Positions 9,001 to 25,268 are shown, numbered from the stretch's first letter. The stretch is 64,000 nt of DNA from Reichenbachiella faecimaris (GCF_900176375.1 NZ_FWYF01000001.1:1062449-1126448); one strand, 5' to 3'. Numbers and translations are program-made. Notes: a model not told the origin generated them from the letters alone.

Positions 9001-9286
9001 TACTGGAGTCACAGGGCCTACTGACAACATAGGTGTATATGGCAATGTAAAGCTCTATCCAAACCCATTTAAGGATTTCATTCAATTGGATCTGACGGAT
9101 TTTTCTGCTGAAGAAGTTGAGATTACTTTATTTGATCTCACTGGTGCAATAAAATATCAACAGAGGATATCTTCTACAGAAAGTCATTTAAGAATTGGGA
9201 CAAATTTGGAAGATGGGTTCTATGTCCTCCATGTAAAAACTGACCAATTACGCGAAGTACATCACATAGTTAAATCAGATCAATAA
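6062..9286 (+). CDS. Secreted M43B (ulilysin/cytophagalysin-type) zinc metalloprotease with PKD domain, two GEVED domains and a T9SS C-terminal sorting domain
   Basis: It has a signal peptide. The HEFGHYLNLAHTF motif (HExxHxxxxxH) is followed by CSAPGDHVSDTP, as in ulilysin. A PKD-like domain follows (PVAAF...YEVTLNASN). GEVEDYTVNI and SEVEDYSIDV are two GEVED domains. The C-terminus (KLYPNPFKDFIQLDL...FYVLHVKTD) matches a T9SS CTD. Confidence 0.8.
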   Translation: MRGILSIMMTILLSFIINQQSLLAQTSGISCGTSQAMEELYKARPEAAKKAQEFNQFTKTFEVQQSAQRKAASGYTIPVVFHVFGSDFQGASVTQSIIEDALQKTNEDFNGLNPDYGDVSAYFSGRKSTLDIDFALAKIDPNGNATTGITFNSARSGFGNGGGYDSQIQQYAWDNNKYMNIYIMLDLYDDGATNNSGVAWYPDQWMTDNNLARVVYNGRYLGTNTSENFRRVLTHEFGHYLNLAHTFDNGCSAPGDHVSDTPSTTSNSGTCNYTVETCSGAGPANGENFMDYSECYRMFTQGQVARMEAALNHSARQPLWQASNLVATGVDGIGAHVLLASSSFSEDQTNDGTINGQTSITAENGASFAASGTLTEGIHYTTTNLPNGLNISITVTNSTTATFNISGAANNHSQSNSLNDLSVTFLDPTITGGANSLFSPTLTMSIEFIDPYQIVYEDMTDVSASASATWTYFTINTGGHAYGAWYDNGKLRLETYTKSMICEGSSRNLTKLDFGDPINATSNWVAGGAYPDEHDIRSNQYTVWDGSSGYLGFQVTNNQGLNINGWFSITVAANGNSFTIHDYAYNEDPNGTITAGQTTANTGNPPVAAFSASSTIIIEGESISFTDESTHTPTSWSWAFEGGTPATSTNQNPEVTYTTAGVYEVTLNASNSSGNDSITMTDYITVNEATGSAYCESAGSRVSYEWIANVTLNNFSNPSDAQLYSDFTNQTISITKGQSHAVALTPGFSGSAYNEYFKIWIDYNQDGDFEDAGEVAFDAGAASNTTVNGSIIPPTSALLGSTRMRVSMKYNSAPTYCGNLGDGEVEDYTVNISNDTTPPAEYCEVTNGAPNGQYIKRFQFGNIDNSSNYENGGYSDFTSQTTTIQAGSPTSMTITPHNTWGATGAKAWIDWNRDGDFNDANEEVLSGSGSGGSYSATVSVPAGAVDGITRLRIRALYSGTATPCDDEYFSEVEDYSIDVNTGVTGPTDNIGVYGNVKLYPNPFKDFIQLDLTDFSAEEVEITLFDLTGAIKYQQRISSTESHLRIGTNLEDGFYVLHVKTDQLREVHHIVKSDQ

Positions 9287-10533: not shown

Positions 10534-10692
10534 TAAATACCAATGTATGAATTTGTAGGTTTGGCGTGCAATTTAATAATGATTTAAGAAGGGTTTTGAA
10601 ATTATGGAAACTTAATAATTGTTCTTGTCAGAAATCGAATGGCACGAGCTCCACACCAGATCTAAAGTTAGAACTAATCCGAGCTGAAACGT

Positions 10693-10710
10693 TTGTGGCC
10701 CCTCCAGGAA
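10693..10710. repeat. Distal att direct repeat of the integrative element (ttgtggcccctccaggaa), a copy of the tRNA-Arg 3-prime end
   Basis: It is an exact 18-bp match to 25194..25211, which overlaps the 3-prime acceptor arm of the tRNA at 25197..25268. Confidence 0.7.
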
Positions 10711-10852
10711 ACCGTAAATATTTGAAACTCAGCTTAAAACCAGAATTTAGAAAAAAAATAATCAAACATTTCCATTAATTAGGTTATTCTCATTGTGGGA
10801 AGAAACGTTCTCTTAGACAATAAAACTCCAAAAACTTAATCAAGAACAACTT

Positions 10853-10889
10853 ATTAAACTAAATTACGTACAACATATTAAACTAAATT
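10853..10889 (+). promoter_or_regulatory. Pair of 13-bp direct repeats (attaaactaaatt) upstream of the Fic gene, a candidate operator or promoter element
   Basis: Copies are at 10853..10865 and 10877..10889, about 40 bp upstream of the ATG at 10931. Confidence 0.25.
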
Positions 10890-10930
10890 TAACGCATCAA
10901 TAAATACTTAAATAAACACAAACCTTATCA

Positions 10931-12466
10931 ATGGCACTACCATCCGAAAAATTAGCACAATCTCTGGAAGTTCTGAAAGAAATACAAAGCAATGGTTCGA
11001 AAACAATCAAAGCTAAAAACCTCACCAGAACACATAGAGAAAGGTTACTAAAACATGGCTTCATCAAAGAAGTAATGAAAGGATGGTATATATCTTCAAG
11101 ACCAGATGAAGTTCCAGGAGACAGCACAAGTTGGTACACCTCATTTTGGGACTTTTGTTCTAACTATCTAAATGATCGATTTGGAAATGAATGGTGCTTA
11201 TATCCTGAGCAATCTTTACTATTACACAGTGGCAACTGGACTATACCAAATCAATTATTGGTAAAAGCCACAAAAGGCCAAAATAATCAGACCACTCTCC
11301 TTTATGGAACTTCTATCTTTGACACAAGGCTTTCTTTGCCAGCCCATGACTCAATTATTGAAATTGACGGGCTTAAACTTAACACTCTGCCGTCAGCCCT
11401 AATCTCAATTTCTGAAAATTTCTATCGTCTACATCCGATAGATAGCCGAACCGCACTGAGCTTGATTAAAGATTCATCAGATATTTTAACGCTATTATTA
11501 GATGGGGGGCATTCGACAATTGCCGGCCGGCTAGCTGGTGCATTTAGAAATATAGGTAACGATCGTGTGGCAAACGACATAATCAAAACCATGAGGGCAG
11601 CTGACTATGACGTAAGGGAGACCGACCCATTTGAAGAAAAATTACAACATTCGATCAATACTAGAGAAGTATCTCCTTATGTACAACGTATAAAATTGCT
11701 CTGGCAGCAAATGAGAGATGAAATCATAGACATTTTCCCAAAAGCTCCTGATGTAAAGAACAAAGAAAGTTACCTGAAATTAGTTGAGGAACTTTATACA
11801 ACTGACGCTTATCACTCCCTATCCATAGAAGGATATCAAGTCACTTCAGAGCTTATAGAAAGGGTCAGATCCGGTAGTTGGAATCCCGATAGTAACGTAG
11901 AAGATCAGGATCAAAAAAATGCCTTGGCCGCAAGAGGCTACTGGCTAGCCTTTCAGTCCGTGAAAACAAGTATTGAAAAAATATTTGATGGTCAACCCCC
12001 AGGAGGAGTAGCTGATTTGGATCATGGAGATTGGTATCGGGCACTTTTTCAACCGAGTGTTGCTGCAGGTATCATAAAACCTTCAGATCTGGCAGGGTAT
12101 CGCAATAGCCCTGTTTATATCAAAAATTCTAAGCATGTACCATTGAACCGGGATGCCGTCCGAGATTGCATGCCAGTCTTATTCGAACTACTGTCGAATG
12201 AATCAGAAGCTTCGGTACGAGCCATTTTAGGACATTTTATTTTCACTTTCATTCACCCCTATATTGACGGAAATGGTCGAATTGGCCGCTTCTTGATGAA
12301 CGTAATGTTGGCCTCTGGGGGGTATCCATGGACAATTATTCCTGTAGAGAAAAGAAATGAATATATGAATGCTCTAGAAAAAGCCAGTATCAATCAAGAC
12401 ATTCAACCCTTTGCTCATTTTGTTTCTCAACAAGTAAAACTTATTAATTCATCAAATAAGCGTTAA
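10931..12466 (+). CDS. Fic family protein (class II, AMPylase-type Fic core with cis inhibitory helix) with an N-terminal ~260-aa AbiEi-like wHTH extension
   Basis: The canonical Fic motif HPYIDGNGRIGR is at 12254..12289. An (S/T)xxxE(G/N) inhibitory motif (SLSIEG) is at 11816..11833, upstream of the core. The N-terminal segment (LTRTHRERLLKHGFIKEVMKGWYISSRPDE) resembles AbiEi-type wHTH. Confidence 0.85.
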   Translation: MALPSEKLAQSLEVLKEIQSNGSKTIKAKNLTRTHRERLLKHGFIKEVMKGWYISSRPDEVPGDSTSWYTSFWDFCSNYLNDRFGNEWCLYPEQSLLLHSGNWTIPNQLLVKATKGQNNQTTLLYGTSIFDTRLSLPAHDSIIEIDGLKLNTLPSALISISENFYRLHPIDSRTALSLIKDSSDILTLLLDGGHSTIAGRLAGAFRNIGNDRVANDIIKTMRAADYDVRETDPFEEKLQHSINTREVSPYVQRIKLLWQQMRDEIIDIFPKAPDVKNKESYLKLVEELYTTDAYHSLSIEGYQVTSELIERVRSGSWNPDSNVEDQDQKNALAARGYWLAFQSVKTSIEKIFDGQPPGGVADLDHGDWYRALFQPSVAAGIIKPSDLAGYRNSPVYIKNSKHVPLNRDAVRDCMPVLFELLSNESEASVRAILGHFIFTFIHPYIDGNGRIGRFLMNVMLASGGYPWTIIPVEKRNEYMNALEKASINQDIQPFAHFVSQQVKLINSSNKR

Positions 12467-12554
12467 ATTTTACCCTAGATCTTATTAACTCTAATTATAT
12501 AGATCTTTACTTGAAGTATTAAATAATTTAGATGTACATAGACGAAAACCCAAC

Positions 12555-15500
12555 TTGATCAAATCAATTTTCTCCTTTCGAAACTTTAGTATAGCTTGTT
12601 ATACACTGTCGATAGTATTAGCTCTTATCTGGCACTTTTATTTTGATGGTGGTTTCGAGCCATTCACAGTACTCCCTTTGTTCGTTCTATCTTTAGCTGG
12701 ATATCTACTCAATAAGCACGCTAACAATATAAATCATGAACTTTTTTCAAATTTTCAGAACGAAATTAATGAAGCTGAAAATTTGTTCATTTCATATTTC
12801 ACCAGATCATGCATAAAAAGACTCGATGAAATCCAAAAGAGAATTGATACGTCTACCTTAACAGGGACACTTGGTACAACATTAAAAGCTAGGGCATTCT
12901 ATCTTAAAGGCCAATGCTATAGTCATATTGGAGACAATGACAATGGCTTTCCTTGTTTCCTTCAAGCAGCATCACTGAAAACGGACATAAAATATCTAGA
13001 AAGAAAATGCACCATCACATATCATGCTGGCGAAGAAAATAATGCACTTGAAATAGCCAATGACATTCTTGAACAAGACCCCTTAAATCCACGCGCAAAT
13101 GCAATAAAACTAATTATTGATAAAAACTTTGACATAGAAAGTATACATCCTTTCCTAAAAACGGATAAAACATTTAATCAAATATTCGGCAATATAGTAT
13201 CGAAACAATATCAGATAAATATTGACAAAAAACTTATCGATCTGGAATCTATAATAGTGCCAGATACCTTAAGTTCAGAAGACTATCACTATTGGGTATT
13301 TATCCTTTCGCATAGTTATTCAAAATTCTTACAAGAAAATCCGCTGGTATATTCAAAGCCAAATCCTGATAAATTAAACTCCTCAACTTCCCTTATTTCA
13401 AATATTAGTTCAATTTCAGAAATCATTCTTAATGCCACGAAAAATTCTGAACTAATTGAACAAAGTCAAACACTCAAATCTATTGAGTTTATTAGCCTTC
13501 ATATAAAATATTTACTTTATCAAGATTCAAATATCCCCAACAAAATGGTTAAAGTTATAACTCAAGAAGGCTATGTAATTAGTGAAAATGAGTTTATAAC
13601 AACAATTGCTCTATTGGGAAAGGTCAAGCTTCCAGAAATGATACTGAATTTTAAAAATCATGATTACGTCAAAAAATTAAATCTAGAAGTAATTTTCGCT
13701 CTGGCCTGTGTTGAAACGGAAGCAAAAGATGAGGCTATCAGTTTCTTTAAAGGATACATTCAAGGTTTAAACTTAGTTCAACGCTTTGCGGTTAAAAATA
13801 TCACATTGGCCATTGAATATTTTAGGCTTAACGATATTAATACAAGCGATTTATTTGACAATCAGCTAGCAACTAAAAAATATGAATATGAAGTAGATAA
13901 GCTTCTAATTAATATTGCTTGCAAGAAAGACCATATTCCAAATGAAGAATTAAAAAAACTAATTCTTTCCCCAAACCTTGAGCATAAATTACTCAGTATA
14001 GAAAACAAAGAATATTTATGTCTATGCTTAAATCAAATCGGTGAATTCGATGAGAGTAATAAACTTCTCATGGATGACTTAGACATTTCAAAAGAATCAT
14101 TAATGAGCTATCTATATTTAGATAATCTCTATAAAAATAGGAGCCAGTACGATGATTTGATAAAAGGGCTTGAATACTGGAGGTTAAATCATGCCCCCGT
14201 TTTTATATTGATGACCTATGAAATCGAACTTCAGCATACCCTTAGAAACTATGAGAAACTGGAAGAAGTATGTAATTACGGATTAGTACACTACCAAAGC
14301 TACAAAACAACCCTAATATACTATTTAATAATTGCATTAAATGGTGAATCACACAAGATTGATACCCTGAAAAAACTCCTAAACGAGGACGCATTGAGTT
14401 GTGATTTCAGTTGGCAAATGGCGTTTCATGTAGCACGCATTTGCTTAAATCATGAGTTTTACGAAATTGGATTTGAACTAGCTTACAGGAAAACTAAGAG
14501 CCGACCAGACAATATTCAAATAAAACAACATTATTTCGCATTAGTTGCGCAATTTTTAGACTCTTCTAAAATCACTGATCCCGGCAAAGTAGAGCTCGAT
14601 TCATCAGTAATTCTAATAGGAGAAAAAAGTAAACATATTATCCATATTAATGCCGACACTATATCTGGAAATAAAATTGTTCGTGAAATTCTAAACCAGA
14701 AAGCTGGCTTTTCCTTTATTAATAAGGACGAAGCCACGAATCAAAGTCGTGAATTGACCATTGAAAAGGTGGTAAATAAATATTCAGGTTTAATGACAGA
14801 AATCATGAATGAAATTTCATCTACGAGCAAGTCATTAGGGTATGACATAATATCTGTAACATACAAACAAGATGATATTGATTCAATTAATAGAGTCCTT
14901 TCCAATAGTTTCGGTAAAATGGGTGATAAAAGACAGATCATTCAAGGAAACGCCTTTAGCAGTTTCAATTCGGGAAAAATTAGTTTCACAAAATTGGTAC
15001 TAAATGTGAATTCATCAAGTTCAATAGAGATTTATCGTTCCTTGATAAGCGACTCTACTGCCAGTATTCATATTGTACCGAAGTCGTTATTTAATCAAGC
15101 AGATTTTTCTAAAGTAACTGAATATGTCCTTGATATCACCTCTTTGTTGATCCTTTCAAAATTAAAACCCAAAATCGACAGCGAAAATATAACTCTACTG
15201 GTGTCTCAAATATTGATAGATTATTTAGAATTCAAGACACAAGAGGTAAGACATATGCCCGATGAGGCTATGAATCTAAATATTACCTCTCTGGGCGTTC
15301 AACCATTCTTCTACCCTGAAAACTATAGAGCAGAATTGCTAAAGCAACTTTCAAATTTGACAAGTTGGATATCTGAAAATTGTAAAATTGAGTTTGCACC
15401 TGACAAGCTGGACTTACTTATGAAAGACCCTACATTGCTTGATAGAGAAGATTGGCATTTTCAACTTTGTTTGGATAATCTGCTAATAGCAAATAGACCA

Positions 15501-16031
15501 AATAGGTCTATTATCTCAGATGATCTAATGTACTTTCAAGAAAAACGGCCTTTCACTAACCCTCTTAGTGTCGAACACTTTCTCAGGATTCATAAACCAG
15601 ACCAATTAAGAGAGTACCAGCTCAGCTTACTCGAATTTAACCAGGTAGGATTGACATTAGATTCTAAGGTAATAACGCAGTGTTTCGAAGAAAACCCGAT
15701 GATTGAATCATCAAATAACCTCTTCAGAAAAGCAGTTAACAACTTATCATTTCATAAACATGGTGATCCAAACCTAATTTATGAGGTAATAGTTACCGTA
15801 AAAAACATTTACTTACTCGAATTGGAAAGGGGTTTCAAGCAGAGATTAGCTCAAACCTTGTTTACTGAAGCTTTAAAAGGTTACCCAATTACACTTAACT
15901 CTGGCACTAAATTTAGTGAATTTATCAAAAAGGAATTTTGCCTAATGGGAGACATTGGTCTCGACGTTATCGATGCGCTAACCAAGTCATTAGAAATTCT
16001 AAACAAATCAAGAAATCTTGCAGCAGACTAA
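12555..16031 (+). CDS. Large (1158 aa) membrane-anchored alpha-helical repeat (TPR-like) protein of unknown function, co-oriented downstream of Fic
   Basis: The ORF is long and uninterrupted with a TTG start and no in-frame ATG for >300 codons. Two N-terminal hydrophobic helices are present. The remainder is helical, Leu/Ile/Lys/Asn-rich, without a Walker A or other recognisable catalytic motif. It lies 88 bp after the Fic stop. Confidence 0.55.
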   Translation: MIKSIFSFRNFSIACYTLSIVLALIWHFYFDGGFEPFTVLPLFVLSLAGYLLNKHANNINHELFSNFQNEINEAENLFISYFTRSCIKRLDEIQKRIDTSTLTGTLGTTLKARAFYLKGQCYSHIGDNDNGFPCFLQAASLKTDIKYLERKCTITYHAGEENNALEIANDILEQDPLNPRANAIKLIIDKNFDIESIHPFLKTDKTFNQIFGNIVSKQYQINIDKKLIDLESIIVPDTLSSEDYHYWVFILSHSYSKFLQENPLVYSKPNPDKLNSSTSLISNISSISEIILNATKNSELIEQSQTLKSIEFISLHIKYLLYQDSNIPNKMVKVITQEGYVISENEFITTIALLGKVKLPEMILNFKNHDYVKKLNLEVIFALACVETEAKDEAISFFKGYIQGLNLVQRFAVKNITLAIEYFRLNDINTSDLFDNQLATKKYEYEVDKLLINIACKKDHIPNEELKKLILSPNLEHKLLSIENKEYLCLCLNQIGEFDESNKLLMDDLDISKESLMSYLYLDNLYKNRSQYDDLIKGLEYWRLNHAPVFILMTYEIELQHTLRNYEKLEEVCNYGLVHYQSYKTTLIYYLIIALNGESHKIDTLKKLLNEDALSCDFSWQMAFHVARICLNHEFYEIGFELAYRKTKSRPDNIQIKQHYFALVAQFLDSSKITDPGKVELDSSVILIGEKSKHIIHINADTISGNKIVREILNQKAGFSFINKDEATNQSRELTIEKVVNKYSGLMTEIMNEISSTSKSLGYDIISVTYKQDDIDSINRVLSNSFGKMGDKRQIIQGNAFSSFNSGKISFTKLVLNVNSSSSIEIYRSLISDSTASIHIVPKSLFNQADFSKVTEYVLDITSLLILSKLKPKIDSENITLLVSQILIDYLEFKTQEVRHMPDEAMNLNITSLGVQPFFYPENYRAELLKQLSNLTSWISENCKIEFAPDKLDLLMKDPTLLDREDWHFQLCLDNLLIANRPNRSIISDDLMYFQEKRPFTNPLSVEHFLRIHKPDQLREYQLSLLEFNQVGLTLDSKVITQCFEENPMIESSNNLFRKAVNNLSFHKHGDPNLIYEVIVTVKNIYLLELERGFKQRLAQTLFTEALKGYPITLNSGTKFSEFIKKEFCLMGDIGLDVIDALTKSLEILNKSRNLAAD

Positions 16032-16079
16032 CAGACTCAGGAAGTTCTAATTGTCACCCATTTCTGATACTGTTAGCAA

Positions 16080-17252
16080 TTACAATAATGAATTACTCGT
16101 ATGAACTAACGTTCTCAAAAAGTGAATTTGAAAAAACCACAAGCAAACGCTATTAAAATGAGATAATTCGAGGTTTCTAATATTCTCAATTTCATTCTCA
16201 GGGCTAACACAATTACCATTAAACAGTAGGTTTTTAGCCAATTTTTCAGACAGAGCCCAATAATCATCCTGACGCAATAACACCCGGCCGGCAAACCTAT
16301 TTTTTAGTTTTTCAAAATCATTTTTAGAAATACCTTTGGTCAACCTATTCATTTCAGATTTTATCAATGCTATAGCTCTTTTGGTCTTTGATTTCTCTAC
16401 ATCAAATTCGAGGTAAAGAAGTCCACAATCGGAAAAACGGGGAGCATTCAGATCGATATCATAAATCAATTGATTTTCGACTCTCAGTCTTTGATAAACC
16501 CGATCCTCGAACATGCAAATGGCCAGCTGAATGTACAAATCATCTTCATGATCATATTTAGGTATTGGAAAACCTAAAATTACATGATCTGGATCTTCTG
16601 GCAGATTCGTTTTATCCCAAATTTCAAAGCTGTCGCAATAGTAAAATGCTTTTCTCACTCGGTGATTTGCCTCTAGTGATACTGTACCAAATGCATCATT
16701 AAACATGGCCTCTACTTCTGCATCTGGCAAATCCGAAATAATTGAGATTACCGCCCTCGATGTACTAAAGATCCTGGAATAAAATGCTGACATCTTATCA
16801 ACGCCAATCTTTTGAATACTGGCCTTTGTGCCAAGTATACTTCTCCCAAGGTCATGATTGCGAAAAAACAATTCGTAATACTCATCAATCATCTCATCTG
16901 ATTCGTCAATCTCACACAAAACGATCTCTTTTTCTCTTGAGACCATATCACTATCAATAGACAAGTCAAAAACCTCCTTTTTTAAAGAATCTAAACTTTG
17001 AGATAAGAATTGCTTAGGTACAACAAATTGGAAAGTCATTTCCTCATGACCGGTTCCTGCATCTAATTGTCCACCTCTCGCTTCAACTACTTCGCTGAGC
17101 TTTTGATTGGACATTATCAAATGCTCCAGAAAGTGGGCATAACCCTGTTCATCGCTTCTTTCATCCCTGCTACCAAACCCAAGAGTAAAGCAAACATAAA
17201 CACCCTGTATACCTGGGTTTCTTTGATAATATGCTTTTATCTCATTGGACAT
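16080..17252 (-). CDS. M16 family (pitrilysin/insulinase-type) zinc peptidase-like protein
   Basis: The inverted zinc motif HFLEH is at 17121..17135. The surrounding sequence, GSRDERSDEQGYAHFLEHL...EVVEARGGQLDAGTGHEEMTFQF, matches the M16 N-terminal signature (GSRhE..G.AHFLEHm...GG.lNA.T..d.T.Y). The track ORF starts with TTG at 17297. The likely ATG (MSNEIK) is at 17252. Confidence 0.7.
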   Translation of the reverse strand: MSNEIKAYYQRNPGIQGVYVCFTLGFGSRDERSDEQGYAHFLEHLIMSNQKLSEVVEARGGQLDAGTGHEEMTFQFVVPKQFLSQSLDSLKKEVFDLSIDSDMVSREKEIVLCEIDESDEMIDEYYELFFRNHDLGRSILGTKASIQKIGVDKMSAFYSRIFSTSRAVISIISDLPDAEVEAMFNDAFGTVSLEANHRVRKAFYYCDSFEIWDKTNLPEDPDHVILGFPIPKYDHEDDLYIQLAICMFEDRVYQRLRVENQLIYDIDLNAPRFSDCGLLYLEFDVEKSKTKRAIALIKSEMNRLTKGISKNDFEKLKNRFAGRVLLRQDDYWALSEKLAKNLLFNGNCVSPENEIENIRNLELSHFNSVCLWFFQIHFLRTLVHTSNSLL

Positions 17253-17312
17253 TGAAACCAACTTCTTATTACATATTATGAGATATAAACTATACAATGA
17301 TCAGTACTAGGT

Positions 17313-17978
17313 TTATTGTAAGTATTCATGCATCAATCGAGTTGTCTTATTAATAAGGCCAGCTAAATTATCCTCCAAGAATCCATTATAATTTGAAACT
17401 GGTCTTTGAATCATGACATTAGCCATTTCTTCTACATTTAAATTGTGCTCTGGCAAGAATTTGGAAATCAGAATTGAACTTTCCAAGGGATGATTTATCA
17501 AATCTTCAAAATTGATTATTAAGATTGGCATCTTATAATCTTTTAAACTTTGAAGTGTGGAAAAAGTCATTCTTTCTATATCGGACACATCAACCAATTG
17601 AGACTTCAATTTTAATAAATCAACTTTCGGGTCATTAGTCTTTTCTTTATCCTTAAGAAGACCGAATAGTAAGTTCGAGACTTTTTTTATACTCTTAGAT
17701 TGTTCTTTTGAGTTTCTCAATACCCAAATAAATTTATAAGAATATCCCTTTGGCAAGTTCAAACAAAACGGAAATAATACCTTGACAGCTGCACCTTTGC
17801 ATTCATTTAGCCAAGAGGATTTTTCGGGCAATGCCATCTGTAAAGGAGATTCAAAAAAGGGATGAAACTTAGGATCAACAAAAACAGGAAGTCCTCCTTG
17901 ATTCAGCATTTTCATTAATAAAGAAGATCCACATCTTCCCATTCCCGTAACTACAGTAATAGAATTTTTAACTTTCAT
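17313..17978 (-). CDS. Small P-loop protein, sulfotransferase-family-like
   Basis: An N-terminal P-loop-like VVTGMGRCGSSLLMKML is at 17922..17945, resembling the 5-prime-PSB motif of bacterial sulfotransferases. A possible 3-prime-PB-like WVLRNSKEQ follows. The gene ends 15 bp before the M16 gene start, so the two form an operon. Confidence 0.4.
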   Translation of the reverse strand: MKVKNSITVVTGMGRCGSSLLMKMLNQGGLPVFVDPKFHPFFESPLQMALPEKSSWLNECKGAAVKVLFPFCLNLPKGYSYKFIWVLRNSKEQSKSIKKVSNLLFGLLKDKEKTNDPKVDLLKLKSQLVDVSDIERMTFSTLQSLKDYKMPILIINFEDLINHPLESSILISKFLPEHNLNVEEMANVMIQRPVSNYNGFLEDNLAGLINKTTRLMHEYLQ

Positions 17979-18100
17979 GATTTTGAGATTATATTTTTTA
18001 TTAATTACAATTTCAGGTTAGATCAACCAACTATTAAAAACCTGAATTCTTTCTTCTTCAATATCTGCCAACACAGAATTGGCATTAGAATGTCTTAAAT

Positions 18101-19117
18101 TTATTCCTGAGACAGAATATTTGACGCTAAAATTGATTTGCCGAGGGAATACTCAAGGCTATCCTTAAGATCCAGATCTAAGCACAGACGTTTATGGTCT
18201 GACCACCAATCATTTTTCACATGTTCCTGGATTGATTCAACTGTTAATCTCAACCTTTCTAATAGCTCATTTTCTTCTGGAATATCATCATATAAATCGT
18301 TGAATTCTCCTAACGCTGACACTGCATTGATTTTATTAAGTAGGGAGTCGCAAGCTTCAACTGTTAATTTTTGATCTTGTAAACTGAGTATTTCAACAAT
18401 TAGAGATTTAAAATCTCCGGTAAATTGAAGATTGGCATTGCCTTTTTCATCGAAGTCCTCTTTCTCTAAAATAACCTCAATTTGAAACTGGTCTGATAAT
18501 GTAATAACATCAGAGTGAAGATTGGTTTCCAAGCGTTTAATCTTCATATTCTCAAACCTTTCGATAAATCTGGTAGCCTGGTTCCAAATTAGATTCTCTG
18601 TGTATTGATCAGCATCATAATCATAAATGTCCTCAACAGCATCTTGGATATCTTCAAGACTATTTATGTAATGATCGGTTTCCTCCAGTTTATGCGCATA
18701 CTCAGGAGGTAGCTCTATCAATCGTCTCAAAACTTTCTTAAAGCCTTTCAAGGCAATTCTTTTTTTCTTGCGCAACTCTATTGCCGCAGAATTTAGTAAG
18801 TCATTTGAAGCTGAATTAGCGTCAAATTTAATGAGCTCCTTTTGTTCTTCTTGTGGTTCACTGTGAACTTGTTTGGGTTCATTTTCGACTTCCGTTGGTT
18901 CACTTTGGGATTCTACTAGTTCATTTTCCAATTGAGTCAGGGCTTCAATTTCATCATCCGAACTGAACTGATTGATCCATCTGTATATTGTGGCCTTCGA
19001 TACTTGTCCTTCTAGCTGGCGTTCAATTTCATTTGCGTTACGTCCTTCTTCAAATAACTTTCTGGCCTCTTCTCTTAATTCTTTATTTCCTTTCATGATT
19101 TCAGGTTTATAAAACAT
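18101..19117 (-). CDS. HTH-domain protein (N-terminal terminase-small-subunit-like or transposase-like HTH, acidic linker, C-terminal domain of unknown function)
   Basis: The N-terminus reads EGRNANEIERQLEGQVSKATIYRWINQ. An acidic E/Q-rich tract follows. The rest has no recognisable motifs. Confidence 0.45.
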   Translation of the reverse strand: MFYKPEIMKGNKELREEARKLFEEGRNANEIERQLEGQVSKATIYRWINQFSSDDEIEALTQLENELVESQSEPTEVENEPKQVHSEPQEEQKELIKFDANSASNDLLNSAAIELRKKKRIALKGFKKVLRRLIELPPEYAHKLEETDHYINSLEDIQDAVEDIYDYDADQYTENLIWNQATRFIERFENMKIKRLETNLHSDVITLSDQFQIEVILEKEDFDEKGNANLQFTGDFKSLIVEILSLQDQKLTVEACDSLLNKINAVSALGEFNDLYDDIPEENELLERLRLTVESIQEHVKNDWWSDHKRLCLDLDLKDSLEYSLGKSILASNILSQE

Positions 19118-19181
19118 GAAACAAATGAATAATATCGGATCTGATTTGGTTTTTAGAATTTTTGCATTCTTGCATTAATTT

Positions 19182-19406
19182 TCATTCCCTTTCCATCTTT
19201 TTCTCATATTCCCATTCAATATCCAGGTGTTTGAGCAGTTTTATCATCTGGCCGCTGGAAATCAACCCCCTTTTCTTTATGTTAATTTCAGACCTAGAAT
19301 TGACAGCACTCTCAATCGATTTTCTCAATGTGGGTTGTGATACACCTAACATATCAGCCAATTCTTTACGGTTGAAAAAGTTTTTATTGTTTGGAAGTAT
19401 AACCAT
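19182..19406 (-). CDS. Small HTH DNA-binding protein (AlpA/excisionase or regulator-like)
   Basis: It is 74 aa with FNRKELADMLGVSQPTLRKSIE as the HTH. It sits immediately downstream of the iteron region. Confidence 0.5.
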   Translation of the reverse strand: MVILPNNKNFFNRKELADMLGVSQPTLRKSIESAVNSRSEINIKKRGLISSGQMIKLLKHLDIEWEYEKKMERE

Positions 19407-19494
19407 AATTCAGTGCTGGAGCTGAGATATTATTTTGTGGCCTTGTTTAGCTGACGAAAACTGATTTGCGTCTCATGTAGCAATTTTAAAAAAT

Positions 19495-19750
19495 GCGTAG
19501 TTTTTGTAGTTTTCGTCGTTTCGAGAAATAACAAATTGATTATCAAATAATTAGGCAAGTTAAAAAAACTACAAAGCAAAAATATGTGTGTAGTTTTTTG
19601 TAGTAATGGATTCCAATTATATTGGATAAAAACTACGTATACTACATTTTTAAAATAGGAATGTAGTTTTGTAGTACACCCAAATACATCATTATTGAAT
19701 GTATAGGGCTTATTTTTAGGAAAAACTACAAAAACTACAAAAACTACGTT
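19495..19750. repeat. Iteron array (at least 9 copies of AAAACTAC / GTAGTTTT in both orientations, including 3 tandem AAAAACTAC at 19721..19748), a candidate replication or transfer origin
   Basis: Examples are cgtagtttttgtagttttcg (19497-), aaaaaactacaaagc (19563-), gtgtagttttttgtag (19588-), aaaactacgtatactac (19629-), atgtagttttgtagtac (19661-) and aaaaactacaaaaactacaaaaactacg (19721-). The array is non-coding and lies directly upstream of the primase-helicase gene. Confidence 0.65.
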
Positions 19751-19803
19751 ATTTACAATCATGATATTAATAATCTAAAATTGCTTTGATTTCATATTCA
19801 GTC

Positions 19804-22134
19804 TTAAAATGGTAAATCAGTACTTTCGTCGGTATCATCGGATTCCTTTCTATTAAACTCTTCCAGTTCTTCTTCATTGAGCCATTCTTGTACGATAAAA
19901 TGGTAAGCTCTAGCCTTTTCATCTTTGTAGTATATCGTTGGAGCTACTCCAGGAATCGTTGAATCAACATTATTCCATCCAATGGGAATTTTTATATCTC
20001 TAGGATCGTTTGGCTTTAATTTTCTTTTGTCTTTGAGGTATGTTTTCAACTCAATAGTATCAACCTTATATTTTGACATTTTAGGATCGTTCAATACTTC
20101 CACTAAATGACTGATTGAATACTTTAGAACAGGTAATTTGAAAGTAAGAAACTGGTCTTTAATCCAATCTTCAAAAACTCTATCCAATCGGTTTTTGGTG
20201 GTTTCTACGATGATGCGAAATTGCTCAGTTTCGAACTGGTCAGGGCTAAACCAAAGCCTATCAGTTTTGTCGTGCGCCACTGATCTATTGGCGATGAAAT
20301 GAAGGAAAGCAGGAATTTCCTTTTTCAGCTTCATTTCCAGATCCGGGTCTTTGTCTTCTTTGGGTATCACTGGCACCCGTACCACAAACCAGCGGCTTTC
20401 GCCGTCCTCGATCTTCATCACACGGTCGGCATCGTTCGAGCAAATGATTAGCTTTCCATAATAGGCCGTTTTTTTCACGTCCATGCCTTTGATTTCCATA
20501 TAGGAGGTATCGGCCGTGGCGAGCTGCTTTAGTCGCTCTTTTTCCGCTTTCTTGTCTACTTCGAGAAAACCTTCGTCTATCGCAATGATGAATTTATTTA
20601 TATAATGGGCGTTGAATTTCATTTTGAATTGATCATTGCCCAGGATAGCCATGTTCGACCCGTAGATGGCCTGTAGCCATTTGAGGAAAGTACTTTTGCC
20701 TGTGCCGTTCTCAGGACTTACTAGAATAGGTACAGGAAGCATTTGTTTGGGTCGCTGAAACTGTAAAGTCAGGTAATCCAATGCCACAGTAAACTGATCG
20801 CCAATGATATTGTTTTCTATAGTGCCTTCGCCCTGGAAGATATGCCTTAGAAATTTGGCCGTATTAGGAAACTCCCCTTCTACAAGGTCATGGGTGAGCG
20901 GACTATAAAGGTTGTAGCAATCGTAATGCACTCGTTTATAGTTCTCATTCCAACACGGTTCACTACAGAAAGCATCGTATTTAGGCACGTTGTCCAGGAA
21001 GTCAGGAAAAAACTTGTAGTCACGCTGTATTTCTCCAATTTTCCATCGTATCAAATCTTCTTCAGGTTCACCGTATTTGTTTGGCGTGGTAATCACTTTT
21101 ACCCAATCAGGGCCTATACGCATATATTTTTCGGTGTCTTCGTGTCGGACATACTTCACAGCTTCACCGTTGAACTCATACCTTCGTTTTTTGAAGAGAA
21201 ATTCCCGTGATCCTATAAATGCCTTGTAGGTAGTGTAAAATTCGGTTTCGTTGCGCAGACCGAAGTAGGCATACATGCGCTGGAGCTTGCCATCGGTGAG
21301 AATGTGACCCGTGAAATACTTCTGTGCAAACTGAAATTTGAGCAGATCATTTTTGATTTCTTCTCGTGGCTTTCCGGCGGTGTATTTGCCCAGCAGATCG
21401 TCCAGCCCTTTGGCATCTTCCTGAATGTAGCGGCTGCGAATGTGCATAAAATACACATTGGTCAAAGCCACCTGGTCGTCGTCTAGTAGCAGCTCCACCG
21501 ATTCACGCAAGTACTTGACAGCACTATAAAAAGACTGCGGCCGCTGGCTTAGGTCTTTGTCTTTCTTCCAGTTGACTGTGAGGGTGTCGGCATCGGTGAG
21601 GTAGACCAGTTTTTCGACCTTGCAGACGGTAATGAGTTCGATTAGTTCGTGGTGTAATTCGCCTGGCATATCGCCGCTGTAGAATCCGTGTATAGATGGT
21701 AACCCTACGATATCAAATCCGCACGTATCGCCCATCCAGGCTTTAAATTCACCTTCGGTGAGTACCAAAGTATCAATGTTTTCTTTCTTGGCGTATTTAG
21801 CCAATATACCAGGAGGAAAAAACGGGTGATGTCCTGATCCTTTGGGCTGCCAGTACTTCATATCACCTTCAGGATTTTTCAATCGCTTTCTGCTGAAGGG
21901 TTCCGCCCATTTGTTGCCTGGCTTGGTGTATTTGACCCGTGACTTATTGAGCTTGAAATAATTGATTACAATATTGTCTTCGTCGTCGGTTTCGAAGTAT
22001 CGGTTTGATACCTCGATATCTTCATTCGAAATATGGCCTTTTCGTTTGAGGTTTACGACATTGTTTTGGTCGGTCACACCCAGCGCCTTCATGCGCTGCT
22101 CAAAATAGCTCTGATTATTTTTCAAAGACTCCAT
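19804..22134 (-). CDS. DNA primase-helicase (N-terminal Toprim, C-terminal P-loop NTPase of the VirE/D5-like type)
   Basis: Toprim motifs are LTEGEFKAW and YLTDADT (DxD). The Walker A is SPENGTGKST and the Walker B-like motif is IIAIDEGF. Size and architecture are typical of Bacteroidetes and phage-satellite pri-rep proteins. Confidence 0.75.
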   Translation of the reverse strand: MESLKNNQSYFEQRMKALGVTDQNNVVNLKRKGHISNEDIEVSNRYFETDDEDNIVINYFKLNKSRVKYTKPGNKWAEPFSRKRLKNPEGDMKYWQPKGSGHHPFFPPGILAKYAKKENIDTLVLTEGEFKAWMGDTCGFDIVGLPSIHGFYSGDMPGELHHELIELITVCKVEKLVYLTDADTLTVNWKKDKDLSQRPQSFYSAVKYLRESVELLLDDDQVALTNVYFMHIRSRYIQEDAKGLDDLLGKYTAGKPREEIKNDLLKFQFAQKYFTGHILTDGKLQRMYAYFGLRNETEFYTTYKAFIGSREFLFKKRRYEFNGEAVKYVRHEDTEKYMRIGPDWVKVITTPNKYGEPEEDLIRWKIGEIQRDYKFFPDFLDNVPKYDAFCSEPCWNENYKRVHYDCYNLYSPLTHDLVEGEFPNTAKFLRHIFQGEGTIENNIIGDQFTVALDYLTLQFQRPKQMLPVPILVSPENGTGKSTFLKWLQAIYGSNMAILGNDQFKMKFNAHYINKFIIAIDEGFLEVDKKAEKERLKQLATADTSYMEIKGMDVKKTAYYGKLIICSNDADRVMKIEDGESRWFVVRVPVIPKEDKDPDLEMKLKKEIPAFLHFIANRSVAHDKTDRLWFSPDQFETEQFRIIVETTKNRLDRVFEDWIKDQFLTFKLPVLKYSISHLVEVLNDPKMSKYKVDTIELKTYLKDKRKLKPNDPRDIKIPIGWNNVDSTIPGVAPTIYYKDEKARAYHFIVQEWLNEEELEEFNRKESDDTDESTDLPF

Positions 22135-22149
22135 CTATACATCTTTTCT

Positions 22150-22178
22150 AAAAAAAAAGCTGCCTTGAATAGGCAGCT
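22150..22178 (-). terminator. Rho-independent terminator (minus strand) after the 142-aa gene
   Basis: Read on the minus strand, the hairpin AGCTGCC-tattcaa-GGCAGCT is followed by a run of 9 T. Confidence 0.55.
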
Positions 22179-22185
22179 GTTATTA

Positions 22186-22614
22186 TCAACCAACATGTTC
22201 TAAGATCATCTTTTCAAGACTCGATGGTCGGCAGGATTGAGCGATCCTGGCAATGACATTAATCGCATCAAAACATTTTAATGGATCATCGCAATTGTCT
22301 GCAAAGTTCGAAGAAAGAATACTCATACTTTCTATCATATACTCATGAAACTCCAGCAACATGGGAGCTGTATCAAATTCATCAAAGTGAATTTCTATAG
22401 TGTCTTCCTTGCTATTAAGTGTCCTGAATATTGACCTGGCCAGCATCGAAAGAAAGGCGACTTTATCCAGTGTTTCTCTAGGTGAAATCTCGCTACCGTG
22501 AGCAGTAATTGTCTCTATGGCTTGAATTAATTGACTGTAGAACTCTTTCAGATCTGATCTGCTTTCTACACCGGGCATTTTTAATACCCAAGGATTTTTA
22601 GTAGGTTTACCCAT
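22186..22614 (-). CDS. Hypothetical protein (island backbone)
   Basis: It is a 142-aa ORF with an ATG start, good length and a terminator downstream. No motifs were recognised. Confidence 0.45.
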   Translation of the reverse strand: MGKPTKNPWVLKMPGVESRSDLKEFYSQLIQAIETITAHGSEISPRETLDKVAFLSMLARSIFRTLNSKEDTIEIHFDEFDTAPMLLEFHEYMIESMSILSSNFADNCDDPLKCFDAINVIARIAQSCRPSSLEKMILEHVG

Positions 22615-22696
22615 GGTTTATAAAATTTAGTAATGATTATTATATTCCAGTATGCGATAAAAAAATTAGCCCTTGTGTTACGCGCACAAGGGTTTC

Positions 22697-22978
22697 TTAT
22701 TCATCCTCTTCCAGAAAGTATCGATTGACTTCGCTCTCGGGGACATAGAGCTTTTTACCTCTCCGAATGACTTTAATCCTATTTTGATCTCTGAGTTGAT
22801 CAAACTTCCATCGACCAATTTTAGCTTGAAACATGAACTCAGATGCCGTTAAAAATTCTGGACGTGGCACCATTTTTAGATTTTCAAGTGCTCCTAAAAT
22901 CTTATTCTGATTTTCAATGAATTCTTCGAACCTTTCTGAAGGTAATTCAATTATTTGCTTGACTGATGAGCCTTCCAT
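22697..22978 (-). CDS. Excisionase-family HTH (HTH_17-like) DNA-binding protein
   Basis: The protein is 93 aa. LTASEFMFQAKIGRWKFDQL...IKVIRRGKKLYVPESEV matches the MerR-like excisionase HTH common in Bacteroidetes mobile elements. Confidence 0.55.
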   Translation of the reverse strand: MEGSSVKQIIELPSERFEEFIENQNKILGALENLKMVPRPEFLTASEFMFQAKIGRWKFDQLRDQNRIKVIRRGKKLYVPESEVNRYFLEEDE

Positions 22979-23066
22979 TTTCGTTTTATTATGAATGTTA
23001 CAGTTATTTCATAATTCAAACATAATGAGAATATATTGAAATGTGAATATTATCGTGAAATGTTTT

Positions 23067-23843
23067 TTATTTTTTCACGATTTCAAAAGTTCTTAGATAA
23101 TATTCACAAGTCTGCTGAAGTAACTCTATCTCTTCAGTTCTATAATCGGTACTCAAGAAATTTACAGACTCAATGGCATCCACTTGACACATTTCGTATG
23201 TTGTAATAATATTACCACTCCTTTGTGTTTCAAGCATTCTTTCTAACAAGGCAAAACCAACTTCAAACGGCTTAAGGATTTCTAGGTAAAAAGCAGTCTG
23301 TCCATTACTATCCGAAGAGATACTTCGAAGAGGTGTGAAAAATTCTGAAAACTTATTTGGTGTAGACAGAAGCTTGTATTTTACATCTGAGTAGCCACTT
23401 GAGACTAATTTGTCCTTCAATATAGCACCTAAGAAAAAGTCTACAGATAGAAAAATAGGATTCAAATAAATATCAAGTATACCCTTTACATTTAAGTCTA
23501 GTAGGTTTTCCCCCTTATCATAGAAATTTCTAAATATCTTTTGACAAAGCTCTACCTCCTTTTCAAGAGTATTACGAAGCATTTCTGATGGGTTTGAAAA
23601 TTGCTGCTCCGTTAAATATCCAAAATCCCAAAATTCAACGCTGCTAGAAAATTCTTGAATTGAATACTCATCGCGCTCTACATGTTCGGAGTATGACGCT
23701 AGGTGGCTTCTTATTTCAACTGGTTTATTATTATATCTCAGTCTAATATATAGCGGATACCTTGGATTATTATTTACGTCAACTTCCGGAGGGAGACGTT
23801 TATTCAAAAAATGTCTTACTGTAAACTTCTTTTCTCGAGCCAT
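23067..23843 (-). CDS. Hypothetical protein (island backbone, adjacent to the integrase)
   Basis: It is a 258-aa ORF ending 2 bp before the integrase start. No motifs were recognised. Confidence 0.45.
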   Translation of the reverse strand: MAREKKFTVRHFLNKRLPPEVDVNNNPRYPLYIRLRYNNKPVEIRSHLASYSEHVERDEYSIQEFSSSVEFWDFGYLTEQQFSNPSEMLRNTLEKEVELCQKIFRNFYDKGENLLDLNVKGILDIYLNPIFLSVDFFLGAILKDKLVSSGYSDVKYKLLSTPNKFSEFFTPLRSISSDSNGQTAFYLEILKPFEVGFALLERMLETQRSGNIITTYEMCQVDAIESVNFLSTDYRTEEIELLQQTCEYYLRTFEIVKK

Positions 23844-23845
23844 AA

Positions 23846-25036
23846 TTACAAACCTAAACTACTGATATCAATTTTATCCACTCTCTCCCCCATTTCTCTA
23901 AGAGACAGTTCATAGTAGCTCTTCGTAGTACTTTCCTTAGTATGCCCTACAATCTTTGCCGTAAATTGTGTTTCCAGGCCTTGAGCTTCCCAGAACTGAA
24001 CAGCTGAATGTCTGGCCATTTTATTGCTTAGCTTTTTATTGATCCCAGCTGCAGCTGCTATCTCTTTTAGTTTTCCATTATACTTCGGTTCTGATATCAG
24101 ACTAGGAAATATAAACTTGCTGTGTTTTCCTTTTTGTTCAGATACCAAAGCAATAGCATGCGGAAATTTGTATATGGGCGCCAGGTAGCTTTGATTGTTT
24201 TTATAGCGGTCGGCTCGAATAAAATAGCCCTGGTCACTCGCCACCAAATCAGGCCACTCTAATTTTTTTAGATCCGAATAATAAAAGGCCGCATAAAAAC
24301 AAAATAACCAGTGATTTCTTGTGTCTTCTAGATCCTGTCTATCCAGTGGCAACCTACAGTTCTTTAGTTGTAGAATCTCATCAGTTTCAAGGTATGATCT
24401 CCTGGGCTTTGAGAGCTTAATGCCTAAGTCCACCAAATAAAACGGATCTCGATCTAGGTGTCCCTGCTTCACTGCCTTTCTAGTGATTTTTTTGAAGGCA
24501 TCAAAATACTTCTTCACCGTGGCCCCGGTATGTCCTTTACCCTTTAAGAATTCAACAAACCTCAGGAATAAATCTTCGCATAAATCACAAAATAGAATTT
24601 CCTTGTTAAAAGAATTAAGATGTTTTTGAAACGTCTTATATTTCTTGATTGTATTAAGATTGTTGAATTTTTCAGTTCGAAGATAGTTCTCGATGTAATC
24701 GTTGAATAGCTGCTTGTTTCCAGTCATCCGCATGAAATCATCAATAGAAGAAAGATGAATAGAATGTCCAAAAGCTTTAAGACGATATATATGCGAATTA
24801 ATCGCAGCCACCTGATCTTGGATGAGCCTGTTTATTTCAAAGCTATTCGGATGAGATTCTTTAACCCACTTATCCGGTTTACCACTCCAAAATTTAGGAT
24901 TGATTCTTTGGTCTAAACTATAATACTTGGATTTCCGATTGATTGTAACCCTAACCTGGATCTGGTGTAACCCTGACTTTGTTTTGCGATTATTCCGATT
25001 AATTAATGGTGTAACTGAGAATCCCATTTTTTTCAT
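23846..25036 (-). CDS. Tyrosine-type site-specific integrase (Bacteroidetes type with N-terminal Arm DNA-binding domain)
   Basis: The N-terminus (KSGLHQIQVRVTINRKSKYYSLDQRINPKFW) is Arm-DNA-bind-like. The C-terminal catalytic region has ...MARHSAVQFWEAQG...IVGHTKESTTKSYY (R, H-x-x-R, H, Y). The gene is adjacent to the tRNA. Confidence 0.85.
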   Translation of the reverse strand: MKKMGFSVTPLINRNNRKTKSGLHQIQVRVTINRKSKYYSLDQRINPKFWSGKPDKWVKESHPNSFEINRLIQDQVAAINSHIYRLKAFGHSIHLSSIDDFMRMTGNKQLFNDYIENYLRTEKFNNLNTIKKYKTFQKHLNSFNKEILFCDLCEDLFLRFVEFLKGKGHTGATVKKYFDAFKKITRKAVKQGHLDRDPFYLVDLGIKLSKPRRSYLETDEILQLKNCRLPLDRQDLEDTRNHWLFCFYAAFYYSDLKKLEWPDLVASDQGYFIRADRYKNNQSYLAPIYKFPHAIALVSEQKGKHSKFIFPSLISEPKYNGKLKEIAAAAGINKKLSNKMARHSAVQFWEAQGLETQFTAKIVGHTKESTTKSYYELSLREMGERVDKIDISSLGL

Positions 25037-25193
25037 GGTTTATTCAAACCTATGACAAAAAAATGTGAAAACAAATGCGCAAACAAATACCAAAAACAAG
25101 CAACAATAAACAATTGAACAAACATCAAAAAACCTTGATTATTTACTAACAATCAAGGTTTTAGCTTTTGTTTGTATTTGCTAGATGTTGTTA

Positions 25194-25211
25194 TTGTGGC
25201 CCCTCCAGGAA
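25194..25211. repeat. Proximal att direct repeat (ttgtggcccctccaggaa) overlapping the tRNA-Arg 3-prime end
   Basis: It is an exact match to 10693..10710. Confidence 0.7.
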
Positions 25212-25268
25212 TCGAACCTGGATCTAAAGTTTAGGAAACTTCTATTCTATCCATTGAACTAAGGGGCC
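25197..25268 (-). tRNA. tRNA-Arg (anticodon CCT)
   Basis: The reverse complement folds as a cloverleaf. The acceptor is GGCCCCT/AGGGGCC, the D-arm GTTC...GAAT, the anticodon stem GAAGT/ACTTT with loop TTCCTAA (CCT), and the T-arm CCAGG-TTCGATT-CCTGG. CCA is not encoded. Confidence 0.8.

Follow-up and report, generated by a model that had tools for sequence, protein, structure and literature searches.

In a 64,000-nucleotide stretch of DNA from Reichenbachiella faecimaris (GCF_900176375.1, NZ_FWYF01000001.1:1062449-1126448; the whole stretch is referred to here as the window), a marine member of the order Cytophagales (Bacteroidota), we found a 14.5-kb island, at positions 10693-25211, flanked by the exact 18-nt direct repeat TTGTGGCCCCTCCAGGAA. 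Its gene content and its relatives make it very probable that this is an intact, integrative, self-replicating and horizontally mobile island inserted at a tRNA-Arg(CCT) gene. Our leading hypothesis is that the same island also depends on a phage, i.e., that it has the lifestyle of a satellite; to this full statement we assign a probability of about 0.4.

An earlier reading, made by a model from the sequence alone (the sequence-only reading), had described positions 18101-25036 as a backbone resembling that of a phage-inducible chromosomal island (PICI), a kind of phage satellite, or of an integrative mobilizable element (IME). The features that it listed outward from the tRNA gene, i.e., integrase, a 258-residue protein, an excisionase-like protein, a 142-residue protein, a primase-helicase, iterons, a small helix-turn-helix (HTH) protein and a 338-residue protein, were all in place (Table 1), although the span proved too short, the 18-nt repeats bounding a longer element. 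The tRNA-Arg(CCT) gene is the only tRNA gene of the window; an Rfam scan agreed with this call and returned nothing else in the window. Most of the island has a G+C content of 30-36%, compared with about 40% in the flanks, and the backbone genes from int to the gene for an M16 metallopeptidase are co-directional, pointing away from the 3' end of the tRNA gene. From the repeats, the junction in an excised circle (attP) is predicted to read GCTAGATGTTGTTA-TTGTGGCCCCTCCAGGAA-ACCGTAAATATTTG, and the empty chromosomal site (attB) CCGAGCTGAAACGT-TTGTGGCCCCTCCAGGAA-TCGAACCTGGATCT.

Table 1. Features of the R. faecimaris island, in window coordinates unless a related locus is named.
Feature	Coordinates	Strand	Length	Basis and remarks
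Distal att site	10693..10710		18 nt	TTGTGGCCCCTCCAGGAA, exact copy of tRNA-Arg 3' end plus 2 nt; repeat search
Fic-domain protein, SoFic-like	10931..12466	+	511 aa	Pfam Fic 1.4e-10; PADLOC SoFic 6.6e-22
PIN-domain protein of TPR-GreAB-C-PIN conflict system	12555..16031	+	1158 aa	PF20698, 28.4 bits (cut-off 27.8)
M16 metallopeptidase, semi-conserved backbone gene	16080-17252	-	390 aa from ATG	Peptidase_M16 and M16_C; sister copies at L009 7722-8957, L010 11583-12815, L013 10928-12106
221-aa open reading frame	17313-17978	-	221 aa	Weak Sulfotransfer_3 match (sulfotransferase-like P-loop)
p338, family hallmark	18101-19117	-	338 aa	Always downstream of Rep and origin
HTH protein, CI-repressor-like	19182-19406	-	74 aa	Phage_CI_repr 1.1e-4, 23 bits (cut-off 22); kept in 5 islands
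Iteron array, putative replication origin	19490..19750			GTAGTTTT(T), both orientations, AT-rich DNA
Primase-helicase	19804-22134	-	776 aa	Toprim-like N-terminus, SF3/D5-type P-loop helicase, C-terminal domain
p142, conserved	22186-22614	-	142 aa	Homologs in 4 islands
Xis/AlpA-like protein	22697-22978	-	93 aa	Kept in 5 islands
p258, adjoins int	23067-23843	-	258 aa	Homologs in 6 islands
Tyrosine integrase (int), Bacteroidota type	23846-25036	-	396 aa	Pfam and PHROG matches
12-nt tandem repeat	25056..25088			CAAACAAATGCG, 2.8 copies; between int and tRNA
Proximal att core	25194-25211	-	18 nt	Inside tRNA-Arg(CCT) region 25194..25268
tRNA-Arg(CCT)	25196-25268	-		Rfam concordant

The replication module lies at the centre of the backbone. 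The primase-helicase matched DUF5906 (1e-16) and a VapE-like family (4e-5) in Pfam and a PHROG annotated 'DNA primase' (5e-17), and its P-loop region gave a profile match (7e-10) to the PDB 'Primase' entries 6k9c and 6k9e; the match to TIGR01613, the P4-family primase model of NCBIfam, was weak (27 bits against a cut-off of 108.7). The sequence-only reading had called this protein a Toprim plus VirE/D5 primase-helicase. The P-loop helicase is borne out by these matches; Pfam makes no Toprim call, and the Toprim assignment rests on a weak DUF3854 match and on the signature E127-G-E129 and D181-A-D183, which, like the Walker A and B motifs, is invariant in nine homologs.

Directly downstream of this gene is an AT-rich repeat region (about 19430-19800), in which GTAGTTTT occurs nine times between 19497 and 19747, against six copies in the other 63.7 kb of the window and 3.0 expected over the whole of it. 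The array aligns with that of a second Reichenbachiella island (L009), the iterons being conserved. A 110-aa open reading frame (ORF) at 19430-19762 (L008 12373-12705, called on a Logan assembly) was discarded as almost certainly no gene, because it is the translated iteron array (VVFVVFVVF...).

The same arrangement was found in every island locus that we read: short repeats of its own come straight after the gene for the replication protein (Rep). The window and L009 have GTAGTTTT, L010 has a TGTTAC core, L012 has TGTCTCA, L013 has eight copies of ATGTTGGA, and CCTACAAA, ATGTAGGA and GTTACAAA are the repeats of L015, L020 and L017, respectively. The slot for Rep holds four unrelated types, i.e., a D5-type primase-helicase, a DnaG-type primase, a DUF3987 protein and a DUF5906 helicase. 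As read from these loci, the pairing strongly supports an initiator-plus-iteron origin and, because each type of Rep is followed by its own repeats, we conclude that Rep and origin have been exchanged as a unit.

Several of these Rep types are common to local phages. Outside the island family, the nearest relatives of the window primase were in IMG/VR contigs of 31-41 kb and in genomes of Cyclobacteriaceae and Hymenobacter, with 45-57% identity across the whole protein, rising to as much as 79% within the helicase domain. Four loci with related primases (L001, L002, L005 and L007) carry genes for a head-maturation protease, head-decoration proteins or tail fibres, and in three phage loci (L002, L003 and L007) a repeated 8-mer, TGTTACAA/TGTAACAA, lies immediately downstream of the primase gene. 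Because the relatives of the primase thus sit in prophages with structural genes and repeats, we conclude that the replicon is derived from phages. The islands themselves measure 11-14.5 kb, against the 31-41 kb of the IMG/VR contigs with related primases. Isolated phage genomes yielded only remote relatives of the primase (24-30% identity over part of the protein). As a separate observation, the repeats of the L010 island (L010 positions 8770-9040) and those just downstream of the primase genes of the prophages L002, L003 and L007 have a TGTTAC-type iteron core in common, although the primases are only about 40-50% identical; this may reflect a shared specificity for the origin. The idea that iteron specificity tracks the C-terminal domain of the primase was tried and dropped, since per-domain identities showed no clear co-variation and the L010 C-terminal domain was no closer to those of L002, L003 and L007.

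The comparison of islands covers nine contexts including the window, i.e., eight related loci, with duplicate copies counted as one context. Judged by gene order, they form a small Bacteroidota family composed of int, p258, a Xis-like gene, p142, a swappable Rep, iterons, a small HTH gene and p338, often M16, and then variable cargo. L009, from another Reichenbachiella, has the order of the window through M16, followed by cargo encoding a 1258-aa PD-Lambda-4-like protein and HTH/HipA proteins, and is flanked by the same PMI gene. At a tRNA-Arg(CCT) gene in a metagenome-assembled genome (MAG) of a member of the Cyclobacteriaceae (L010/L011) we found int, proteins of 263, 96, 137 and 91 aa, a 793-aa primase, a 199-aa protein, a 67-aa HTH protein, proteins of 350 and 135 aa, M16 and Fic. 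Reichenbachiella sp. MALMAid0571 (L012) has the same order at a tRNA-Glu gene, with a DUF3987 helicase in place of the primase and an MmeI-type restriction-modification enzyme as cargo. On a TARA Oceans scaffold (L013/L014), int, proteins of 255, 95 and 134 aa, a DnaG/Toprim-type primase of 1105 aa, proteins of 73 and 301 aa, M16 and short cargo are inserted at tRNA-Met, the 17-nt att repeats giving an island of 11.3 kb. An 8.2-kb contig (L015) has, at tRNA-Leu, int, a divergent HTH_3 repressor-like gene, a 90-aa protein, a DUF5906 helicase of 427 aa, a 71-aa protein, an HTH_17 protein of 72 aa, a 315-aa protein and cargo. Metagenome contigs and MAGs (L017/L018, L019 and L020) contained incomplete or variant forms, of which some carry YoeB, HigB or RadC.

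When proteins were clustered with phmmer, p338 was present in all nine loci, int in seven, p258 in six, the small HTH protein and Xis in five each, and p142 and M16 in four each. The insertion sites of the family are four different tRNA genes (tRNA-Arg, -Glu, -Met and -Leu). The 7.16 kb that run from int to p338 have 84.9% DNA identity between the window and L009, and M16 has 89.6%. The one flanking chromosomal gene used for comparison, the PMI gene immediately beyond the att site, reaches only 72% identity in DNA and 69.7% in protein. That the islands are far more alike than the host flank indicates that they arrived recently, by horizontal transfer, at the same tRNA-Arg site in two species. 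The repeat of L009 is 17 nt; each island's repeat matches the tRNA of its own host, and the two host cores differ by 1 nt. Homologs of the backbone therefore occur in mobile contexts, at four tRNA genes and with evidence of transfer between species, and are not confined to non-mobile ones.

On the integration side, the integrase contains Arm-DNA-bind_5, SAM_5 and Phage_integrase domains (Pfam E values from 1e-11 to 6e-17) and matches phrog_1 at 1e-25; its residues R240, R342, H365 and Y374/375 are invariant across the family. Its neighbour p258 gave a weak match to Arm-DNA-bind_5 (Pfam E 0.0093), but the possibility that it is an arm-binding paralogue of Int was rejected, as the profile-profile probability against integrases was 0.2% and there was no PDB match. 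For p142 there was no family match in Pfam, PHROGs, NCBIfam or PADLOC.

The gene that defines the family is p338, whose members are 300-360 aa long. In the family alignment, an N-terminal HTH with the motif SxATVYRWI is followed by an acidic low-complexity linker, then by a KKKR patch, and lastly by a C-terminal domain of about 220 aa that is helical throughout. IS3 transposases and resolvases have HTHs similar to it, in keeping with the transposase-like half of the original description; the alternative given there, a TerS-like HTH, found no support, there being no match to a terminase family or a viral fold. Because the alignment contains no invariant His, Tyr, Asp or Glu, p338 is neither a relaxase nor any other obvious enzyme. 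An AlphaFold model built from an 18-sequence alignment had a mean pLDDT of 81. Both p338 and p258 are very rare, with three proteins each among 5.8 billion, and a p338 profile run against 1.84 billion cluster representatives found about 20 full-length relatives.

The conserved backbone extends past p338 to the M16 gene, of which all four island copies keep the zinc site HxxEH and the downstream Glu unchanged. The closest relatives outside the islands lie in ordinary chromosomal Bacteroidota neighbourhoods on metagenome contigs, so that M16 looks like a recruited host gene now travelling with the backbone. That it is a known defence or phage gene was ruled out, there being no PADLOC or PHROG match in addition to the chromosomal setting of these relatives. 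The slot between p338 and M16 holds unrelated ORFs of 221 aa in the window, 184 aa in L009 and 135 aa in L010, and is empty in L013; on this comparison of gene content it is a second variable hotspot, within the backbone.

At the distal end, the sequence-only reading had expected accessory anti-phage cargo, and the Fic/SoFic protein and the PIN-TPR-GreAB-C protein answer to that expectation. The Fic/SoFic gene is missing from the sister island L009, in which the unrelated PD-Lambda-4-like protein and HTH/HipA occupy the position of the 1158-aa protein. Cargo in other family islands includes the MmeI-type restriction-modification enzyme, YoeB/HigB and an M78-HTH protein. By its domain content, the distal cargo looks like defence or toxin-type genes.

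From these features we infer excision, replication and regulatory roles for the products of the island and, as the most conjectural step of all, dependence on a phage. The element would be excised by Int and the 93-aa Xis/AlpA-like protein, possibly with p258, and the excised circle would be replicated from the GTAGTTTT iteron origin by the phage-derived Toprim/SF3 primase-helicase. The 74-aa CI-like HTH protein and p338 would be DNA-binding factors for control or recognition, and the active-looking M16 peptidase, together with the variable distal block (Fic/SoFic and PIN-TPR-GreAB-C), would be accessory conflict genes. Because the island encodes no transfer machinery, it would have to borrow one, and packaging in the capsids of a helper phage, as with PICIs, P4 and the PICMIs of Vibrionaceae, would be the most likely route.

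No island ORF matched a relaxase, Mob protein, coupling protein or type IV secretion component in Pfam, PHROGs or NCBIfam, and no coding capacity in the 14.5 kb was left unaccounted for; the earlier statement that relaxase, coupling-protein and capsid genes are lacking was thus upheld in all three databases. A relaxase, which would have made the element an ordinary IME, was also looked for in the family, and genes for relaxases, type IV secretion, terminases and capsids were found in none of the nine contexts.

The case for a satellite, at the tentative level given at the outset, is made by the phage-derived primase-replicase and origin, a size about one-third that of the related phages, the lack of a relaxase, the defence cargo, and the precedent of the PICMIs. 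A good deal weighs against it. Among the island ORFs there was no match to terminases (including TerS), portal or capsid proteins in Pfam, PHROGs or NCBIfam, nor to capsid-morphogenesis/Ppi, Sid, Psu, Delta or Ash/epsilon proteins in Pfam or PHROGs; the family searches for TerS, Ppi and capsid-redirecting homologs that had been proposed with the sequence-only reading therefore gave no model above threshold. The 93-aa protein sits where an excisionase-family HTH had been placed, but the HTH_17 match of its C-terminus was sub-threshold (E 0.0031, 18 bits against a cut-off of 27), was shared by three of the five family members, and was not accompanied by a match to Phage_AlpA. Profiles of p338, p258, Xis and p142 found no counterpart in the phage loci with related primases, p338 had no match in 50,697 phage genomes, and its predicted fold resembled nothing specific in the PDB or in the BFVD viral library. 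In scans that detect close relatives only, the window-clade p338 profile, P0008 and P0012 had none in 2.9 million IMG/VR contigs, and the window-clade p338 profile had none in JGI metagenome contigs. The predicted attP junction was absent from public contigs (the window island against metagenome contigs, the L013 island against viral contigs), and no helper phage is known for the island. What stands of the original description is thus a bounded integrative element with its own replicon and without conjugation genes; for the satellite lifestyle that it also proposed there was no positive evidence.

The same tension appears when the island is set beside known satellites. The SatelliteFinder criteria for PICIs comprise an integrase, an AlpA, MerR or Stl regulator, a primase-replicase, a small terminase subunit and a capsid-morphogenesis gene (PMC10085698). 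Applying them, as had been suggested with the sequence-only reading, we found the integrase and the primase-replicase with its origin, but neither terS nor a capsid-morphogenesis gene; for the regulator there were the sub-threshold HTH_17 match of the 93-aa protein and the Phage_CI_repr match of the 74-aa protein, barely above its cut-off. The island would thus be at most 'Type C', a class that the paper itself treats as ambiguous (PMC10085698). As in the Gram-negative PICIs of the EcCICFT073 type, int adjoins the att site, a small HTH protein of AlpA/Xis type is encoded, an iteron origin comes after the primase-replicase, the genes are co-directional, accessory or defence cargo is present and the length lies within 10-15 kb; unlike them, the island has no detected terS or ppi/cpm-type gene, matches the regulator only below threshold, holds no hallmark gene in common with them and has a host in the Bacteroidota. 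It is like P4 satellites in its integration at a tRNA gene, in the defence genes of a variable region and in the architecture of a single large protein in which, as in P4 alpha, a Toprim-type primase and an SF3 helicase are joined to a C-terminal domain, although the TIGR01613 score is far below the cut-off. However, it has no psu, sid, delta or epsilon/ash, its iterons follow the gene and have an unrelated sequence, and P4-like elements are enterobacterial. It differs from cfPICIs and prophages in that no capsid, portal, protease or terminase genes were found in it.

Among marine elements, the PICMIs provide a precedent, as packaging of these satellites has been shown experimentally; their core consists of Int, AlpA and primase, and they lack terS, sid and ppi. 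The island resembles them in its marine host, its core of int, AlpA-type regulator and primase, its lack of recognisable packaging genes and its defence cargo. The resemblance is functional only: PICMIs adjoin fis, occur in Vibrionaceae and have a reduced gene content, whereas the island lies at tRNA-Arg in a member of the Cytophagales and carries the additional conserved genes p258, p142, p338 and M16. VEIMEs are integrative elements recovered from marine virus particles, some with Flavobacteria hosts. Like them, the island is a small marine integrative element with integrase, AlpA/excisionase and primase/helicase genes, although VEIMEs are defined by recovery from virions and the island family was not found among IMG/VR viral contigs. 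The expectation that a satellite in a marine Bacteroidetes genome would be noteworthy is therefore correct as to the host, but such a satellite would not be the first in the phylum, since marine satellites with Flavobacteria hosts have already been reported. For the satellite families compared we found no validated member in the Bacteroidota, and the text of the SatelliteFinder survey does not mention the phylum (PMC10085698).

Taken over all these comparisons, the island lacks the tested defining features of PICIs, P4-like satellites, cfPICIs, IMEs and integrative conjugative elements, and PICMIs, and resembles them in integration and replication. It belongs to a family with hallmark genes that are not shared, of the PICI/P4/tycheposon-like kind, and calls for no new category.

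Somewhat unlikely, in our estimate, is a phage-independent island that integrates, replicates and carries cargo in the manner of a cargo tycheposon, spreading by vesicles, transformation or generalized transduction, with p338 and M16 serving regulation, maintenance or host benefit. Tycheposons are elements of marine bacteria, Prochlorococcus among them; the majority are without packaging genes and may move by other routes. The absence of such genes here is as expected for that majority class, and that the family was not found in IMG/VR, in scans that detect close relatives only, is also in favour of this reading; both, like the lack of any satellite marker, detract from the satellite reading. 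The island and tycheposons alike have a tyrosine recombinase directed at tRNA genes, a partial copy of the tRNA at the distal end, exchanged replication genes and modular, variable cargo, and the apparent recruitment of M16 from a chromosomal Bacteroidota gene also fits. On the other hand, the replicon derives from phages of the bacterial class to which the host belongs, the hallmark genes and hosts of tycheposons are different, and the cargo here is of the conflict, defence or toxin type rather than metabolic genes such as those for nutrient acquisition.

An IME without a relaxase, mobilized by a co-resident conjugative element through an origin of transfer (oriT) on the island and with p338 as an accessory protein of the relaxosome, seems to us unlikely. 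NBU-type mobilizable elements of Bacteroidota have int, small ORFs and a primase-like gene in that order, so the order is not specific to satellites, which is a further point against the satellite reading. NBU1 of Bacteroides encodes the relaxase MobN1 and has an oriT. The island is like NBU1 in its phylum, in the type of integrase, which has an arm-binding N-terminal domain, and in the small ORFs and primase-like gene downstream of int. In addition, p338 sits where such elements carry mob genes, and L012 has in its Rep slot a DUF3987 helicase, a domain common in mobilizable and conjugative elements of Bacteroidota. Unlike NBU1, however, the island has no detectable relaxase, and p338 is without catalytic residues, i.e., it lacks the invariant Tyr or His of a relaxase active site; no match to a relaxase, Mob or coupling protein was obtained in the nine contexts, and mobilization would not need a full phage-type primase-helicase with an iteron origin.

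A decayed, immobile prophage remnant that has kept its lysogeny and replication genes would share with true prophages the arrangement of primase-helicase and iterons, but we rejected this very improbable explanation because the att repeats are perfect, the backbone ORFs are all intact with invariant catalytic motifs, the same compact order recurs at four tRNA genes in islands with protein identity down to 28-33%, the island is more conserved than the host flank, and the island-specific genes have no counterpart in the phage loci.

The satellite reading can also be taken further. In that extended form, which we consider quite improbable, the islands would be an undescribed satellite family of Bacteroidota (Cytophagia) with a hijacking module resembling none so far described; p338, with its HTH and a novel helical fold, would be a factor for packaging specificity or for sensing the helper, and a cytoplasmic M16 peptidase, transferred along with it, would process or destroy morphogenetic proteins of the helper. 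If true, M16 would mean interference based on a protease instead of on TerS, Sid or Ppi.

A few further observations concern the edges of the island and its transcription. Just beyond the distal att site, positions 10617-10675 contain an apparent degenerate partial copy of the 3' half of tRNA-Arg, in which AATCGAA (10633-10639) equals tRNA positions 25210-25216 and GATCTAAAGTT (10659-10669) equals 25221-25231, with a spacer of 19 nt as against 4 nt; this may be a trace left by an earlier integration there. Besides the tandem repeat between int and the tRNA gene, a second short tandem repeat (24-nt unit, 2.4 copies, 10832-10889) lies inside the distal end, and both are possible candidates for arm-type binding sites of Int or p258. 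Hairpins rich in G+C and followed by T-runs occupy the gaps after p142 (22158-22178) and after the xis-like gene (22670-22692), which suggests separate transcription units, although the count of terminators in the island is at chance level. Counts in a scan for sigma-70 promoters were likewise at chance, with a promoter model that is ill-suited to Bacteroidota.

The result is a compact island family with clean att sites and evidence of recent transfer between species, marked by p338, p258, p142 and often M16. Because the host is in culture, the question of whether the island is a satellite can be tested directly; if it is not, it would be an ordinary defence island integrated at a tRNA gene. 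The natural swaps of Rep and iterons within the family are usable for the study of the specificity of initiators for their origins, and new anti-phage genes of Bacteroidota can be sought in the variable distal block and in the p338-M16 slot.

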